Assembly (NCBI GenBank): GCA_965238175.1
Contig: CBDEGZ010000003.1
Coordinates: 2,912,001-2,976,000 of the forward strand
Length of the DNA: 64,000 nucleotides
Source of the DNA: Gammaproteobacteria bacterium
GTDB lineage: Bacteria; Pseudomonadota; Gammaproteobacteria; CAJXQU01
Direction of reading: 5' to 3'
The position numbers and the translations under genes were made by a program. Shown piece by piece: positions 15,289-21,843 of this stretch. How positions within the stretch are numbered: the first letter of the stretch is position 1; each line of letters opens with the position of its first letter. The notes under the pieces were generated by a model. The model saw only the letters and a list, made by a program, of their open reading frames with translations, was not told the origin of the DNA and ran no database searches.

Positions 15289-15308
15289 TGTCGTTATCTA
15301 ACGACAAT
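15289..15308. promoter_or_regulatory. GlrR-type enhancer box TGTC-N10-GACA
   Basis: TGTCGTTATCTAACGACAAT; near-identical box at 21824. Confidence 0.65.
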
Positions 15309-15408
15309 TAGAATTGGTACAATAGAATAAATGTTAGTTCTACTTTAAATAGATAATTTTTTATAATTCGAATATAAAACTATCATCTTAAAGAGTATCG
15401 AAGATCAG

Positions 15409-17973
15409 TCACTTCATAAATCGATCAAGTGTTTGTAACAAGGTCGCCTTTTTAATCGGTTTTGTCAGATGAGAATCACAGCCAGCCTCCAGGCTTTTTT
15501 CCATATCTTCTTTAACAGCATGAGCAGTTAAGGCGATGATAGGAGTTGATTCTAAATGATTTTCTTTCTCCCAACGTCTAATCTCACGGGTTGCAGTATG
15601 TCCATCCATAACGGGCATCTGAATATCCATTAATACCAAACTATAATGCCCTTTTGTGAATTTTTCGACCGCAATCTGGCCATTCTCTGCTTCTTCAATC
15701 TTAAATGTTGTTCTCTTCAAATAAGCATTGATCAATAACCGGTTATCTTCGTTATCTTCAACCAGCAAAATAGGTGCGCAATTAATAAACGACTTTTGTT
15801 CAATTGTATTTAGGTGTTGATTGTCGCTGGGTAACGACACCGATAATGTTCCGGCAACAGCCCTCAATAGCTCTTCAGATTTGATCGGTTTTACCAAGTA
15901 ATTGCTTACACCACATGACTTAGCTTTTTCCAAATCACTATTTAAGTTGGAAGAAGATAACATGAGTACAGTCCTGACACTGCCACCGATTTTATGGACC
16001 CTATTTATGACATCAAAACCATCTATATCTGGCATATGAAAATCAGAAATAACCAAATCATATGGAGATCCTTTTTCTATCGCATCTTTGTAGGCAATAA
16101 CTCCAGAATGACCATCTTTTGCCTCTGTGATAATCATCTCTTTTTGCGATAATATTTCTCTGAGAACGAGCCTATTAGTATCATTATCATCAATGATCAA
16201 AACTCGTTGACCTGACGTATCAGGGATAGCAATGGGTAATAGATCTCCCATAGGTTCGCCCTTCTGCATCCTTATCGTAAAATGGAAAACACTGCCTCTT
16301 CCTTGCTGACTTTCCACCCACATCTGACCACCCATTATTTCTGAAAGACGTCTTGATATGGTCAAGCCCAAACCTGTTCCTCCATATTTGCGTGTGGTAG
16401 ATGAATCGACTTGATTGAAACTACCAAATATAGTGTCAAGTTTTGCTACAGGAATACCAATTCCTGTATCCGCTACGGAACACTGCAACAGAAAAGGATC
16501 ATCCTGATCAGGAGCTTGTCTAACTCTTAGAAAGATCTCACCACTTTCAGTAAATTTAACCGCATTTCCAAGCAAATTGAGAATAATCTGCCTTAACCTT
16601 CCTGGATCACCTTTCACCCAAACTGGAACATCCGCAACAACCTGACAAATCAATTCAATCCCTTTTTCATCAGTTTTTAAAGAATAAATATCGGTTGCTT
16701 CTTCAATTAATCGCGGCAAATCAAAATCAATCTCTTCTATGACGAGTTGTCCTGCCTCAATTTTAGACAAATCAAGAATATCGTTTACCAAACTTAGTAA
16801 CGCTTCGCCAGATTTACGAAAAATATCAACATAGCGGTTTTGTTCTCCAGAAAGCCTTGTTTCAGACAATAATTCAGCCATCCCAATAATCGCGTTTAAC
16901 GGCGTGCGAATTTCATGACTCATGCTGGCAAGGAATTCAGATTTTACTCTAGAAGCTTCTAACGCCTGATCGCGAGCCGTTGCTAATTCTCGTGTTTGTC
17001 GCTCAACTTGTCGTTCAATCTCTCTATTTCTTTCACGTAACTCTCGCGCTTGTATCTCTTTAGCTCTTGCAAGTGCGATCAATAATAAGGTAACCCCTGC
17101 ACCAAGAAACAAAGCTGTCAAGATTAACTTTTGATCAAGATCCGCCCAATACACAGGTCGCTGTATAGTTAATTTAGTCGAATAGTAGGGAAATTGAACC
17201 AGTGCTTCTTCGCTTAAATTCGTTATATTCCAACCTTTTGAAGAAAGATCTTCTTTGATCTTTTTCCGGAAGAGTAACTGTCTTCCTGCAATTCCCTCAG
17301 ATTCACTTTGTAACCTTATTGACAATGCATCAGAAAGTGAATTACCTAATAATGCCTCCGGTGTAATAGCCACAATGACCAGATTGTGTTTAGTTATACC
17401 TCCTGAAGCTTCATCACTCGAAACTCCTTGGACTGATTTTATCAACATATAATTAGGTTGATCGTCTCCTTCTTGATTCATTGGAGTAGGAACAACATGT
17501 TCTGTGTTCATTGCAGAATCTACTGCAATTCTCATTTGCTCTGGTATCTCTAGCATATTGTTAATACTACATACTCTATCACCACTTTTTCCTACATGAA
17601 AAATACACCTCAGTTCTGCATGTTGCTTATTGGAATAGCGTTGCGAATTTTGTGATCCAACTTCGTAATGAGAAATAGAGCGAATAAAAGAATGTCTTTC
17701 TATAAATGATTTTGCGAATGAGTGAAAAGTGTTTTCGCTCATCTCAGGGAGGGATTCAAAAAGATCTGCCATTGTTATGGTCACATCATCAGCAGCAGAA
17801 ACGCCTCGGTTAACCAAAGAACTTATCGAAACTGTCTCAAAGGCAAACTCTTTTTTCTCATCATCTATCGAATTAAACCAGGCCAATAAGAAAAGTATTA
17901 ATGTAAATGACAAACCGAGAATGGTCGTCACTAAATAGATAAATCGTCTGGAAGGCAATCGATTGTGTTTCAA
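15409..17973 (-). CDS. hybrid sensor histidine kinase with two receiver domains
   Basis: Two TMs flanking a periplasmic domain; [31 protein letters not shown]; two REC domains. Confidence 0.93.
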
Positions 17974-18009
17974 ACCTGACCCCGGTTTTGGAAACGTAGA
18001 AATAAGCGC

Positions 18010-18309
18010 TTAAGAATAAACTACTTCTACTCGATTAACATAATCTTCTAATATTTGGACAGCTTGAACAATTTCATCTTTGCTAGATGCAAGTGCTGCA
18101 ACCTCGATTCTACTGCCTAACTCTGTAATGGCGTCAAACCCATATCCACCACCAGATCCCTTCATGCTGTGTCCTAAAGTATGAATTTGATCAAAGTTTT
18201 TAGTCTGAAGACATTCTCTAATAAGTACGATGTCCTTACGACGATTATCCATATATCCGGGAATCAAATCCTCAAGATCAGGGTCGCACTGCACGGTTAT
18301 ATTTTCCAA
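18010..18309 (-). CDS. Hpt phosphotransfer protein
   Basis: LGHSMKGSGGGYGF. Confidence 0.9.
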   Translation of the reverse strand: MENITVQCDPDLEDLIPGYMDNRRKDIVLIRECLQTKNFDQIHTLGHSMKGSGGGYGFDAITELGSRIEVAALASSKDEIVQAVQILEDYVNRVEVVYS

Positions 18310-19709: not shown

Positions 19710-19841
19710 AATGTTCCGCTATCTCATAATTTCTAACTGACGATTGTATTGACTTGGTTAAAAACTAACCATATCCAACTGTGAAAAAACATAAACAGGA
19801 AGAAAACTTACGTTTCATATTGATAGGATTACCTACTCACC

Positions 19842-21674
19842 TTACTCAACTGTCACCGATTTTGCCAGATTCCTCGGCTGATCAACATCAGCCCCTTTGA
19901 TTACTGCTACATGATAAGAAAATAATTGTAATGGGATGGTATAAATAATAGGTGCTATTGCATCTTCAACGGATGCAACATTCAAAACAGTCACTCCCTC
20001 AGAATCTGACATATTTGCATTCACATCTGCAAAAACGATTAATTCACCACCACGTGCACGCACTTCTTCTAAGTTCGATTTTAACTTTTCGATCAAACTA
20101 TTATTCGGTGCAACGGCAATAATAGGCATATCTTCATCAACTAGTGCTAATGGGCCATGCTTCAATTCACCCGCAGGATAAGCTTCCGCATGAATGTAAG
20201 AAATTTCTTTGATCTTTAAAGCGCCTTCCATTGCAATCGGGTACATCGTTCCACGCCCCAAATACAAGGCATGATGTTTCTGTGAAAAACGTTTAGACAA
20301 GGATTCAATTTTATCGTTTAATTCTAGTGCAACATTAACTTTACCGGGCAAACTCTCAAGCTGAGAAATAAGCTCTTCTTCTTGAGCTCTGGTCATGCCA
20401 TTTCTACGACCAAGTGCAATAACCAAAAGCATTAACGCCACTAGTTGCGTAGTAAAAGCCTTAGTTGAAGCGACACCTATTTCAGTTCCAGCTCGAGTCA
20501 ACAAGACTAGATCAGATTCTCTGGTTAACGAGCTCTCAGGCACATTGCAAATTACCATTGAATGATCAAAGCCTGACTTTTTAGCTTCTTTAAGCGCAGC
20601 TAAAGTATCAGCTGTTTCACCAGATTGTGAAATCGTCAAAAACAGAGTATCTGGATTAACAACATGTTCTCTATACCTAAATTCGCTAGCAACTTCGATT
20701 TGACATGGAACACAAGCCAGCGACTCCAGCCAATATTTTGCAACCAGCCCCGCATGGTAGCTCGTACCACAAGCGACGATTTGAACAGCTTTTACCTGAT
20801 CTAAAATAGCATCTCCGTTTAAACCAAAAACATCCTTAGCTAGCTTGTCATTTATAATTCGACCTTCTAGCGTATCCGCAATTGCACGAGGCTGAGTAAA
20901 GATCTCTTTCAACATATAATGTCGATAACCTGCTTTATCCGAAGCATCTGCAGACAATTCAGATGTGCTTATGGGTCGATCAACTTCGTTGCCTGATGCG
21001 TCATAAATAACCAATGAATCTTTACGAATATCAGCGATATCTCCATCTTCAAGAAATATAAAACGTTGCGTTACTGGTAATAATGCAAATACATCCGATG
21101 CAATAAAATATTCCCCAATACCAACACCAATAACAAGTGGGCTGCCTAAACGCGCTGTGACAAGATGATCTGGCTCTTCATTACTAACAACACCTAGAGC
21201 ATAGGCACCTTCTAGTACAGGAATCGTCGCACGTACTGCATCTAGTAAGTTCTTACCCGACTCCATATGATCATAAACTTCGTGAACAATGACTTCCGTA
21301 TCAGTTTGGGAAATAAACTTATGCTTTAGTTCTAATTGTTTTTGTCGAAGAATTTCATGGTTCTCTATAATACCATTATGAACTACCGCAACTTTTCCAC
21401 CACAGATATGTGGATGGGCATTGGCGGTACTCGGTTCACCATGAGTTGCCCAGCGAGTGTGCGCTATCCCCAATGAGCCAAGTAACGGTTCTTTCTCTAA
21501 TGCCTCTTCCAGCCCAACAACCTTACCTAAAACCCTGTGTCGATCTATTACAGAATTTTGATCGATTATTGCCATCCCAGCAGAATCATACCCTCGATAC
21601 TCAAGTCGTTTTAAACCTTCTAATAAGACTGGCGCAATATCACGTTGGCCTACTCCACCCACTATTCCACACAT
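19842..21674 (-). CDS. glmS: glutamine-fructose-6-phosphate transaminase
   Basis: [34 protein letters not shown]. Confidence 0.98.
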
Positions 21675-21823
21675 TGATAAAATCTCTCTTCGTTAAAAAA
21701 CTAAAAACACACTGATGTAAGATAATATCCAAAGACCTTACATTTCTGTGATAAACATTGTCAGAGAAACGCTTACTTGACCTTTTTATACATTGTCTTA
21801 GATAGCCATAGTAACAAAGAGTT

Positions 21824-21843
21824 TGTCGTCAATTAACGACAAT
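21824..21843. promoter_or_regulatory. GlrR-type enhancer box TGTC-N10-GACA upstream of glmS
   Basis: TGTCGTCAATTAACGACAAT; further TGTC half-sites at 21759 and 21794. Confidence 0.65.

Follow-up and report, generated by a model that had tools for sequence, protein, structure and literature searches.

A GlrR-like regulator with a putative phosphorelay and its predicted sites at glmS, exopolysaccharide and PEP-CTERM genes

In enterobacteria, the response regulator GlrR (QseF), together with GlrK (QseE) and QseG, activates the σ54 promoter of the small RNA gene glmY, upstream of which it binds three TGTCN10GACA motifs (Gopel et al. 2011, PMC3045617). PrsK/PrsR is a regulatory system of PEP-CTERM proteins (Haft et al. 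2006, PMC1569441), and its genes occur in an epsB2-prsK-prsR arrangement in Aquincola (PMC9850573). In Vibrio fischeri, the syp polysaccharide locus is turned on by RscS-SypF(HPt)-SypG with σ54, and in LuxU-LuxO a stand-alone HPt feeds an enhancer-binding protein (PMC10162802).

We analysed a window of 64,000 nucleotides from a gammaproteobacterial chromosome. Its relevant genes are as follows, in window coordinates.

21986-22062, minus strand: tRNA-Pro(GGG), the upstream limit of the glmS intergenic region
19842-21674, minus strand: glmS (TIGR01135, 838.7 bits), first gene of the cassette
18342-19709, minus strand: σ54 enhancer-binding response regulator with REC, AAA+ (Sigma54_activat) carrying GAFTGA, AAA lid and C-terminal HTH
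18010-18309, minus strand: stand-alone Hpt of 99 aa with the phospho-His motif GHSMKG (Pfam Hpt, 23.8 bits)
15409-17973, minus strand: hybrid histidine kinase with two TM helices, periplasmic sensor, HisKA, HATPase_c and two receivers
13614-15029, minus strand: priming glycosyltransferase of EpsB2 type (TIGR03013, XrtA/PEP-CTERM system, 565.1 bits), opening the EPS locus
1877-13309, minus strand: remaining XrtA-type EPS locus
1877-2596, minus strand: PEP-CTERM protein gene within the EPS locus

Profile matches along the minus strand bear out the gene order given by a first-pass annotation, namely glmS, enhancer-binding protein, Hpt, hybrid kinase and EPS locus, and add what that annotation had overlooked, the identity of the EPS locus as an exosortase (XrtA) system. 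Besides the priming transferase, the locus encodes a chain-length determinant (TIGR03007, 445.4 bits) and an ATPase (TIGR03015, 366.8 bits), all three above cut-off, and a tyrosine autokinase scoring 230.3 against a cut-off of 230.65 (TIGR03018), along with two GT4 transferases, a Wzy/O-ligase-like protein, a polysaccharide deacetylase and a GINT1_N-domain protein. With two exosortases elsewhere in the genome and PEP-CTERM proteins, the components of an XrtA/PEP-CTERM exopolysaccharide system are present. The glmS gene is the sole glutamine-fructose-6-phosphate transaminase match over cut-off in the genome. Incidentally, a MerR-family gene lies nearby (22130-22486).

The regulator has the marks of an enhancer-binding protein (Pfam matches of 241.5 and 97.4 bits, GAFTGA and D60 invariant in the alignment), and rpoN is present in the genome (498.6 bits). 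Its best NCBIfam match is GlrR, at 570 bits. It is not GlrR proper, as this score falls below the cut-off of 763 (NF011695), which the GlrR controls from Arsenophonus (915.5 bits) and Kushneria (770.9 bits) pass, and it lies in a separate clade; a cassette homologue (L153) likewise stays below at 546.7 bits. Nor does it adjoin the simple kinase GlrK/QseE and the lipoprotein QseG, being flanked by the Hpt and the two-receiver hybrid kinase. Assignment to PrsR (TIGR02915) was also rejected, given 372.1 bits against 502.6, no PrsK over cut-off in the genome and a site unlike PrsR motif 1. In a tree from a quick IQ-TREE search only, the regulator groups with GlrR and GlrR-like proteins (SH-aLRT 100), apart from the eight other activators of the genome and from NtrC, and a clade of its own (SH-aLRT 96) unites the 22 regulators of the cassette. 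It is GlrR's nearest relative in the genome, and its recognition helix is identical to that of the Arsenophonus GlrR. The regulator, called GlrR-like from the start, is thus placed by profile and tree in a sister subfamily of GlrR. At the Arsenophonus locus, used as a positive control, two boxes lie 150-215 nt before an Rfam GlmY. GlmY and GlmZ gave no match at E up to 1 in positions 13000-23000 of the window, and GlmY was found at 128 bits in a control locus (L006).

The Hpt score is slightly below the Pfam cut-off of 24.6; 376 relatives were found. The periplasmic sensor of the kinase matches no Pfam family and has a fold like CHASE/dCache, resembling, among others, that of CqsR, a LuxU-LuxO input kinase of V. 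cholerae. The H-box, receiver Asp, Hpt His in HxxKG and output receiver are all present, and the regulator, Hpt and kinase genes stand together in 27 loci. We propose that the three proteins form a putative multistep His-Asp-His-Asp phosphorelay.

The window contains exactly two matches to the 20-mer pattern TGTCGT-N4-TAACGACAAT, one at 15289 and one at 21824; 100 shuffles gave none. These are the two palindromes of the first-pass annotation, whose positions and start-codon distances agree with ours; their identity is 17/20 instead of the 16/20 it gave, and a third site inside the kinase gene had been missed.

21824-21841, no strand assigned: box 2, 18-bp palindrome TGTCGTCAATTAACGACA, 27.9 bits, 150 nt upstream of glmS
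15822-15839, no strand assigned: box 3, TGTCGCTGGGTAACGACA, 21.3 bits, in the kinase gene at the linker between its two receivers
15289-15306, no strand assigned: box 1, perfect 8-2-8 palindrome TGTCGTTATCTAACGACA, 25.0 bits, 260 nt before the priming-transferase gene
15211-15254, minus strand: 44-nt block, nearly invariant in an alignment of seven genomes, genus-specific, with an internal inverted repeat
15100-15140, minus strand: position of the EPS-operon σ54 promoter in relatives, here with no GG/GC pair (best 12/20)

Boxes 1 and 2 fit TGTC-N10-GACA, so that reading them as GlrR-type sites agrees with the published consensus; the window holds three such sites in total. Box 2 is the top-scoring predicted site genome-wide. 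At the position of box 3, four of the six sister species have an exact TGTC-N10-GACA, and the residues encoded there vary among these species (S-x-x-x-D); coding constraint may be an alternative cause of its conservation. More generally, where a box lies within a gene (kinase, gpsA), the encoded protein could account for part of its conservation. The 44-nt block sits between box 1 and a σ70-like TTGTCT-N17-CACTAT, which is probably a promoter; the block itself may be the target of a second factor or a promoter element.

Across the 3.33-Mb chromosome, TGTCGT-N6-ACGACA has five copies against ~0.16 expected by our own base-composition estimate. A weight matrix, trained solely on six sister genomes and hence on close kin, finds seven sites of at least 20 bits in the genome and none in the reversed sequence, well above chance in the genome-wide scan that had been suggested as a check. 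Each of the seven genus members has 3-15 copies of the shorter TGTCG-N8-CGACA, against 0-2 of the reversed control pattern. The boxes are also kept in syntenic sister genomes: the site upstream of glmS is an exact TGTC-N10-GACA in 6/6 sister species, at a distance from glmS of 150-342 nt across the genus, and before the priming transferase four of them have an exact site and the other two a degenerate one. Two other strong sites lie at 1227474, inside yhdP, and at 2594905, in an intergenic region; we count them against our best explanation.

As the first-pass annotation had cautioned, neither flagged box is followed by a −24/−12 element, and none was found after box 3. With a home-made σ54 consensus score out of 20, no intergenic site of 15.5 or more was found on the minus strand of window positions 1-22000. 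Before the transferase, GG and GC are kept by just two of the seven genus members (G006, 18.0; G005, 16.0). Before glmS, the best score between box and start codon is 13/20, and 14.5 for a site upstream of the box; no conserved σ54 site was found there in the seven genus members or in 18 distant loci. Since canonical σ54 promoters occur elsewhere in the genome, the organism does not appear to use an odd consensus. Because the three boxes have no −24/−12 partner, we infer the regulator's action there.

The cassette of glmS, regulator, Hpt, hybrid kinase and XrtA-type priming transferase recurs in ~22 more distant Gammaproteobacteria. Where the regulator adjoins Hpt, glmS heads the cassette in 25/27 loci, the other two ending at contig ends. 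All 15 distant loci that hold the kinase-to-transferase spacer have a box and a σ54 promoter of the priming-transferase operon, with boxes of 14.6-26.1 bits at −215 to −353 and promoters of 18.5-20 out of 20 at −56 in L145 and between −95 and −129 in the remaining 14; box and promoter are separated by 147-225 nt. In another genome (G021), such a box and σ54 promoter lie upstream of the TIGR03015 ATPase gene. The claim of direct EPS control thus gains from 15/15 distant loci, and loses from the missing σ54 promoter at either box here. As to direct control of glmS, the glmS-upstream box lacks a σ54 promoter and is absent from 18/18 distant cassette loci, so that such control would be a novelty at the genus level. 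The glmS box may serve autoregulation of the glmS-regulator-Hpt-kinase operon, whatever the sign. Therefore the comparative data give good support to the view that the relay controls the EPS/PEP-CTERM system; direct control of glmS is only a candidate.

In 13/15 distant loci, the priming-transferase operon runs on into prsK-prsR. PrsK follows the transferase (two tested loci gave 718.8 and 672.9 bits) and is itself followed by an N-terminus resembling that of PrsR, which scores 270.8 bits across 190 of 445 positions. Among the cassette genomes searched, PrsR over cut-off was found in none of six (this genome, G000; its congeners G001, G002, G003 and G006; and G021), and PrsK in none of the five searched (G000, G002, G003, G006 and G021). 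GlrR-like loci outside the cassette retain a kinase and a ~190-aa gene.

The genome has 12 PEP-CTERM matches, of which 10 exceed the cut-off. Two of the 12 genes (1242276-1242959 and 2673179-2673958 of the genome) have a box, scoring 24.2 and 17.5 bits, that precedes a σ54-like promoter by 89-91 nt; at three more, the σ54 promoter is accompanied by a weak box or a half-site, making 5/12. Both elements are missing at six of the 12, and the start position of the remaining one (813695) is uncertain. In sister species, among 20 box loci chosen by eye out of 39 sites outside the syntenic locus, 12 have a σ54-like site (at least 17/20) 86-333 nt from the box, and at least seven of these 12 then encode a protein with a PEP-CTERM-type tail. 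PEP-CTERM genes with box and σ54 promoter, the clearest predicted targets, had escaped the first-pass annotation; PEP-CTERM surface proteins and polysaccharide genes together would be the clearest targets of the regulator.

Our main reading, to which we give a probability of roughly 0.7, is that the palindromes are UAS of the adjacent GlrR-subfamily regulator, which would relay a signal to σ54 promoters of the XrtA/PEP-CTERM system. A signal at the CHASE/dCache-like sensor would lead the hybrid kinase to autophosphorylate, the phosphoryl group would pass from its receiver(s) through the stand-alone Hpt to the regulator's receiver, and the regulator would bind TGTCG-N8-CGACA sites and activate σ54 promoters. 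The conserved role of the cassette would be to activate the XrtA/PEP-CTERM exopolysaccharide system. A single box and σ54 promoter would drive epsB2-prsK-prsR in distant relatives, where the relay would stand above PrsK/PrsR; in this order, PrsK/PrsR would have been lost, with sites for the GlrR-like regulator directly before PEP-CTERM σ54 promoters. At the flagged boxes, the regulator most likely acts without σ54, in autoregulation of the glmS-led operon and modulation of a σ70-type EPS promoter. Site identity, conservation, gene content and the geometry of box, σ54 site and gene are read from the sequences themselves; binding, the order of phosphotransfer and whether glmS and the EPS operon are regulated positively or negatively, we infer from them.

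The first-pass annotation favored another course, in which the regulator directly activates glmS and the EPS operon from both boxes in the classical σ54 mode, coupling amino-sugar supply to EPS. Boxes do stand upstream of both genes, GAFTGA is intact, rpoN is present, the EPS operon has this architecture in all 15 distant loci, and G006 retains its good σ54 site before the transferase; the deacetylase and GINT1_N protein are compatible with an amino-sugar polymer, and the variable box-glmS distance fits an enhancer. However, GG-N10-GC is missing between box and gene in both cases, no σ54 site is conserved before glmS, and the canonical promoters elsewhere speak against an odd consensus, making this course unlikely.

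That both window boxes lack a σ54 promoter would also suit another transcription factor, such as a sugar-responsive repressor, with the GlrR-like neighbor being coincidental; the palindrome size suits many dimeric HTH regulators, and the MerR-family gene is close by. We regard this as quite improbable, because the published GlrR consensus is matched and the recognition helix identical, unrelated lineages (L004, L006, L007, L008, L009 and L011) have comparable sites next to GlrR-like genes, and the fixed box-to-σ54 geometry in the 15 distant loci and at PEP-CTERM genes requires an enhancer-binding protein. The palindromes could instead be RNA hairpins, as intrinsic terminators after tRNA-Pro and the kinase gene, or REP-like repeats. 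In a consensus scan, box 2 does resemble a terminator on either strand, and the folds reach −7.3 to −10.2 kcal/mol (z of −2.3 to −3.1). Yet box 1 and the L002 box lack a following U-tract, orthologous glmS boxes in other species have no T-runs after them, the arms are conserved in sequence without covarying and have asymmetric variants, and sites lie within coding regions and at fixed spacing from σ54 promoters, so that hairpins or repeats are scarcely credible.

Under the main reading, a further evolutionary course is conceivable, which we put forward tentatively and hold to be somewhat doubtful: the tie between GlrR and glmS predates GlmY/GlmZ, and the cassette tops an XrtA/PEP-CTERM cascade above PrsK/PrsR, with a later takeover in two modes. 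If so, a sister subfamily in one gene string with the cell's only glmS would form, together with the Hpt and the CHASE/dCache-type hybrid kinase, a top regulatory tier not described before. The monogeneric order would have lost the lower tier, its PEP-CTERM promoters being taken over by the GlrR-like regulator, which would also have gained σ54-independent sites at the glmS-led and EPS operons. It would then be a two-mode enhancer-binding protein like FleQ, which works in two modes.

How does the cassette compare with the described systems? It is like GlrR in nearest family by HMM and tree, in recognition helix and site, in σ54 dependence at the clear predicted targets and in a functional tie to glmS. 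It is unlike GlrR in its partners, a hybrid kinase and stand-alone Hpt instead of GlrK and QseG, in the physical linkage of glmS, which GlrR reaches via sRNAs, and in its predicted PEP-CTERM and EPS targets. With PrsR (Haft et al. 2006, PMC1569441) it shares the NtrC-type σ54 activator and sites ~60-90 nt upstream of σ54 promoters of single-gene PEP-CTERM operons, and with PrsK/PrsR a place next to the genes for the TIGR03013 transferase and EPS; the cassette site differs from the 17-nt motif 1 given there, which ends in TTTACA. In distant relatives the two coexist, with the cassette box and promoter upstream of epsB2-prsK-prsR. The order hybrid kinase, HPt, σ54 response regulator and polysaccharide locus is that of RscS-SypF-SypG, a likeness in logic, and a separate HPt upstream of an enhancer-binding protein is that of LuxU-LuxO (both PMC10162802). 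The circuit type is therefore already known, contrary to the initial view that such a circuit was not recognised as described. The cassette departs from these Vibrio systems in regulator subfamily and site, in its XrtA/PEP-CTERM target and in having glmS at its head, and from SypF in that its HPt is a separate protein outside the kinase.

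The genes of the region all lie on the minus strand, in the order pheS, pheT, ihfA, a MerR-family gene, tRNA-Pro, glmS, a response-regulator-type sigma-54 activator (the regulator), a stand-alone Hpt, a hybrid kinase and an EPS locus of the XrtA/PEP-CTERM type. Here ‘cassette’ refers to glmS and the following three genes, and ‘box’ to a TGTC-N10-GACA palindrome, the predicted regulator site. Box 2 precedes glmS, box 3 lies inside the kinase gene, and box 1 precedes the priming transferase.

Features of the region (window coordinates)
21986-22062, minus: tRNA-Pro
21824-21841: box 2, between tRNA-Pro and glmS
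19842-21674, minus: glmS
18342-19709, minus: response-regulator-type sigma-54 activator
18010-18309, minus: Hpt, 99 aa
15409-17973, minus: hybrid kinase with two receivers
15822-15839: box 3, within the kinase gene
15289-15306: box 1, after the kinase gene
13614-15029, minus: TIGR03013 priming transferase, start of the EPS locus
EPS locus, minus: TIGR03007 chain-length determinant
EPS locus, minus: tyrosine autokinase
EPS locus, minus: TIGR03015 ATPase
EPS locus, minus: two GT4 transferases
EPS locus, minus: Wzy-like protein
EPS locus, minus: polysaccharide deacetylase
EPS locus, minus: GINT1_N-domain protein
1877-2596, minus: PEP-CTERM protein of the EPS locus

When the window was re-examined, the gene list, coordinates and distances of the first-pass annotation proved correct; the identity of its two 20-mers is 17/20 instead of 16/20, and box 3 is additional to its two sites. 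The cassette glmS is the sole glmS in the genome. Synteny with all six sister species (G001-G006) spans the genes from ihfA through the chain-length determinant, and a terminator scan found no minus-strand terminator-like site at the glmS/regulator junction. An IS110-family transposase gene (283-1341) adjoins the PEP-CTERM gene at the far end of the EPS locus.

The window has two copies of the 20-mer pattern, 100 shuffles none, and the 3.33-Mb chromosome has five of TGTCGT-N6-ACGACA versus ~0.16 expected, as estimated from base composition. A genome-wide motif scan and a comparison of syntenic genomes had been proposed earlier, and both bear the box out. When a weight matrix trained solely on 20 sister-genome sites was applied to the genome, 7 sites scored at least 20 bits versus 0 in the reversed sequence, and 11 scored at least 16 bits versus 4. 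TGTCG-N8-CGACA is found 3-15 times per genome in the seven genus genomes, versus 0-2 times for the reversed pattern. The glmS-upstream box is exact in 6/6 sister species; the transferase-upstream box is exact in 4/6 and recognisably degenerate in the remaining two. These seven are the only genomes in the order, wider order-level sampling adding none, and all evidence is computational, drawn from related genomes that are not independent. Judged by its frequency and conservation, the palindrome is more than chance.

Neither a sigma-54 promoter nor a PEP-CTERM gene lies in the expected orientation at two other strong boxes, of 25.0 bits in yhdP (C3:1227474 on the genome’s contig) and 21.6 bits in an intergenic region (C3:2594905); the yhdP box is retained in the closest relative, G002, and was not seen in G006. 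A TGTCGC-N6-GCGACA-type box is kept in four sister species, at position ~2001 of loci L120 (G003), L134 (G005), L137 (G004) and L138 (G001). It lies close to where two co-directional ORFs meet, one of them ending ...DDQRVA, with no sigma-54 site nearby.

The best family score of the regulator is against the GlrR model, at 570 bits. GlrR proper was rejected because this is below the cut-off of 763, and PrsR because its model gives 372 bits, below 502.6. In an alignment, the 11-residue recognition helix is identical to that of Arsenophonus GlrR, which passes the cut-off with 915.5 bits; NtrC differs. Enterobacterial GlrR binds three TGTCN10GACA motifs upstream of glmY, according to PMC3045617. 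The Arsenophonus locus, used as a positive control, has two boxes 150-215 nt before Rfam GlmY. At GlrR-like loci of other lineages (L004, L007, L008, L009, L011), boxes adjoin the regulator gene, usually with a sigma-54-like promoter, and most such non-cassette loci are ordered kinase, ~190-aa gene, regulator, like glrK-qseG-glrR; a further locus, L017, was set aside because its translation contains stop codons. A quick maximum-likelihood tree, built from 42 activators, groups GlrR, GlrR-like and cassette regulators in a single clade (SH-aLRT 100), apart from the genome’s other eight activators and NtrC; within it the 22 cassette regulators make up their own sub-clade (96). Taken together, family scores, helix, control locus, other lineages and tree mark the regulator as a GlrR relative with predicted GlrR-type DNA specificity, and the assignment of the boxes to it is well supported by sequence.

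No Rfam family, GlmY and GlmZ included, was found near the window boxes. At two of the non-cassette loci (L011:7387-7925 and L004:7293-7908), ~400 nt separate a box and its strong sigma-54 promoter from a downstream glrK-like gene. The L011 stretch has no ORF of at least 100 aa, and its L004 counterpart has one 104-aa ORF and no Rfam GlmY match; both are candidates for undescribed GlmY-like sRNAs.

An Hpt alignment search gave 376 relatives, the best 80 loci of which were retained for context. The Hpt is preceded by a regulator of the same subfamily in 27 of these best 80, from 5 sister species and 22 more distant, mostly uncultured Gammaproteobacteria (regulator identity 61-68% in the 22); one further locus, L161, begins at Hpt, and the other 52 have Hpt, mostly beside a hybrid kinase, without such a regulator. 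glmS directly precedes the regulator in 25 of the 27, contig ends cutting the other two. Of the distant loci, 15 include the kinase-to-transferase spacer, and all 15 have a box (14.6-26.1 bits, at -215 to -353 relative to the transferase start) and, 147-225 nt from it, a near-consensus sigma-54 promoter (18.5-20 of 20 by a home-made consensus score); this promoter is at -56 in L145 and between -95 and -129 in the remaining 14.

The distant transferase is TIGR03013 in both loci tested, with PrsK next (718.8 and 672.9 bits), and tblastn places PrsK after the transferase at 13 loci. The PrsR N-terminus follows PrsK, with 270.8 bits over 190 of 445 model positions and 113.8 for the next family. 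From the order of box, sigma-54 promoter and transferase/prsK-prsR, the conserved output of the cassette is predicted to be sigma-54-dependent transcription of XrtA-system genes, in most lineages prsK-prsR included, and the EPS link across relatives is well supported by these gene arrangements. An epsB2-prsK-prsR operon is known in Aquincola (PMC9850573); full-text searching, whose coverage lay outside subscription journals, found no description of the upstream cassette. In G021, a cassette-bearing genome of another family, a box and a perfect sigma-54 promoter follow the kinase gene, before a TIGR03015 ATPase with a 490-nt leader. This leader (L103:3250-3735) has no ORF of at least 80 aa and no Rfam match.

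In the window’s own genome, the consensus score found no sigma-54 promoter behind boxes 1, 2 and 3, upholding the earlier caveat that no canonical -24/-12 element follows either of the first two; the sequence before the transferase scores 12. GG and GC are both kept at the relatives’ transferase-promoter position in two of seven genus members, G006 (18.0) and G005 (16.0). A 44-nt block (15211-15254) between box 1 and the promoter position is nearly invariant in all seven, where its conservation exceeds that of box 1; distant relatives lack it. The block contains an inverted repeat with ACAACA(A)TGTTA arms and may be a site for a second EPS-operon regulator. TTGTCT-N17-CACTAT, a possible sigma-70 promoter, follows the block before the transferase; a sigma-70 scan gave no minus-strand match in either spacer, before glmS or before the transferase.

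Upstream of glmS, every genus member lacks a sigma-54-like site (maximum 14.5 of 20), and 18 distant loci have neither such a site (maximum 17.0, position not conserved) nor a box (best 5.5 bits). The absence of the box from the distant loci marks the glmS box, as far as these genomes go, as a genus-level gain. Box 2 is the genome’s strongest site (27.9 bits) and is identical in five of seven species, while the spacing between box and glmS ranges over 150-342 nt across the genus. TTGACG-N16-TATGNN, a putative sigma-70 element read by eye, overlaps it and is good in G004 and G006 and poor in this genome. Between box 2 and glmS there is a second conserved block (~21740-21790; core TGC-TCT-T-ACAAT-TTTT), after which comes a conserved TAnTAT, ~55 nt ahead of the start codon; the block may represent a glmS 5′ leader element or a promoter that carries an activator site.

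On the favoured reading, the regulator would bind independently of sigma-54 both upstream of glmS and upstream of the EPS operon, and would most likely autoregulate its own glmS-led operon and modulate a sigma-70-type EPS promoter. Its effect at these boxes may be activation, repression or a mere affinity sink, among which sequence does not discriminate. That the palindromes act as hairpins or terminators is a weak alternative, since their stems are no more stable than -7.3 to -10.2 kcal/mol, a U-tract is mostly missing, and their arms are conserved, not covarying. Regulator binding at the boxes is the reading retained here. The first-pass proposal of a GlrR homologue directly regulating glmS and EPS genes is supported in part: it gains from the regulator-site match and the EPS link across relatives, whereas direct control of glmS is unproven in this genome, where it has no sigma-54 site.

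Whole-genome examination of prsK/prsR and boxes covered this genome, its genus and G021. PrsR over the cut-off was found neither in this genome (best 372.7 bits) nor in G001, G002, G003, G006 and G021 (0/5), and PrsK over the cut-off was absent from this genome, G002, G003, G006 and G021 (0/5). In this order, PrsK/PrsR have apparently been replaced by the cassette. The genome has rpoN, two exosortases and 12 PEP-CTERM matches (PF07589). Upstream of the F5/8-type-C lectin-like PEP-CTERM protein at 1242276-1242959 are a 24.2-bit box at -217 and TGGCATGGAATGTGCT at -128. The PEP-CTERM gene at 2673179-2673958 has a 17.5-bit box at -166 and a sigma-54-like promoter at -75, 91 nt apart, which would place its product under the control of the relay. 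Genes 2147577 and 1193408 have promoters of 18.5 and 18.0 with weak upstream boxes of 9.0 and 5.8 bits, respectively, at box-promoter distances within 92-115 nt. The one after gpsA has a promoter of 18.5, preceded at 92 nt by a half-site and at 866 nt by a full 27.6-bit box; the latter lies within gpsA and is also present in G003 and G006. Six other matches have neither box nor promoter, and for match 813695 an uncertain gene start leaves this undecided.

Sister species contain 39 exact sites outside the syntenic locus, 20 of which were examined, chosen by eye for pyrimidine/purine beside the CG core. A sigma-54-like site (at least 17 of 20) lies 86-333 nt off, directed away from the box, in 12 of the 20, and in at least seven of these 12 the next ORF ends in a PEP-CTERM-type tail. 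The geometry of site, sigma-54 promoter and PEP-CTERM gene is like that described for PrsR by Haft et al. (motif 1, ~63 nt, sigma-54 motif, ~71 nt, start; PMC1569441), but the site is unlike the genus box, as their motif 1 ends TTTACA.

Some of these genes have further peculiarities. The 91-nt spacing of 2673179-2673958 recurs at similar G006 genes (L132, L133). At the lectin-like gene (L002:4900-5090, C3 ~1242900-1243090), some three tandem 29-nt units overlap the sigma-54 promoter, and the first codons of the gene enter six copies of the 7-nt repeat AAAACAC. Since a 7-nt unit is not divisible by three, this arrangement resembles an on/off switch of the slipped-strand kind. Downstream of gpsA, the PEP-CTERM gene is broken by a frameshift or sequencing error into two frames that overlap, the first of 122 aa and the next of 100 aa with the sorting tail (L003:3532-4102, C3 ~1303030-1303600).

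The expected phosphorelay motifs are all present: the H-box SHEIRTPLN and two receivers with acceptor Asp in the kinase, the invariant GHSMKG in Hpt, and D60 and GAFTGA in the regulator. Domain logic and the co-occurrence of the three genes at 27 loci are the grounds for the proposed order of phosphotransfer. No Pfam family matches the kinase sensor (residues ~35-290, flanked by two TM helices), even with the E limit relaxed to 5. A fold search with a model built on nine sequences (mean pLDDT 70.2, pTM 0.61) gave TM 0.4-0.5 to the CHASE and double-Cache sensors AHK4, PcrK, TlpA and the V. cholerae kinase CqsR. A CHASE/dCache-type fold is only a lead, and this likeness suggests a small periplasmic molecule as the ligand.

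Exosortase/PEP-CTERM systems are widespread in environmental and floc-forming bacteria. To our knowledge, their only known switches are PrsK/PrsR with sigma-54, with no input signal. A conserved relay upstream of epsB2-prsK-prsR would supply the missing upper tier, with a ligand-binding-type sensor, and would exemplify regulatory takeover after lower-tier loss. Since a GlrR-type regulator, from a sister clade of enterobacterial GlrR, adjoins the only glmS, the tie of the GlrR family to amino-sugar supply may be ancestral, with GlmY/GlmZ as one solution that came later.

What appears new is a GlrR-type subfamily and its site serving an exosortase system, the position of the cassette above epsB2-prsK-prsR across many Gammaproteobacteria, with PrsK/PrsR apparently replaced in this order, and its constant linkage to the single glmS. 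The circuit had earlier been regarded as not recognised; its type is already known. According to PMC10162802, V. fischeri RscS-SypF-SypG switches on a polysaccharide locus through a hybrid kinase, HPt and an enhancer-binding regulator, the same mode of working as the cassette relay, and LuxO is fed by a stand-alone HPt, as proposed for the cassette regulator.
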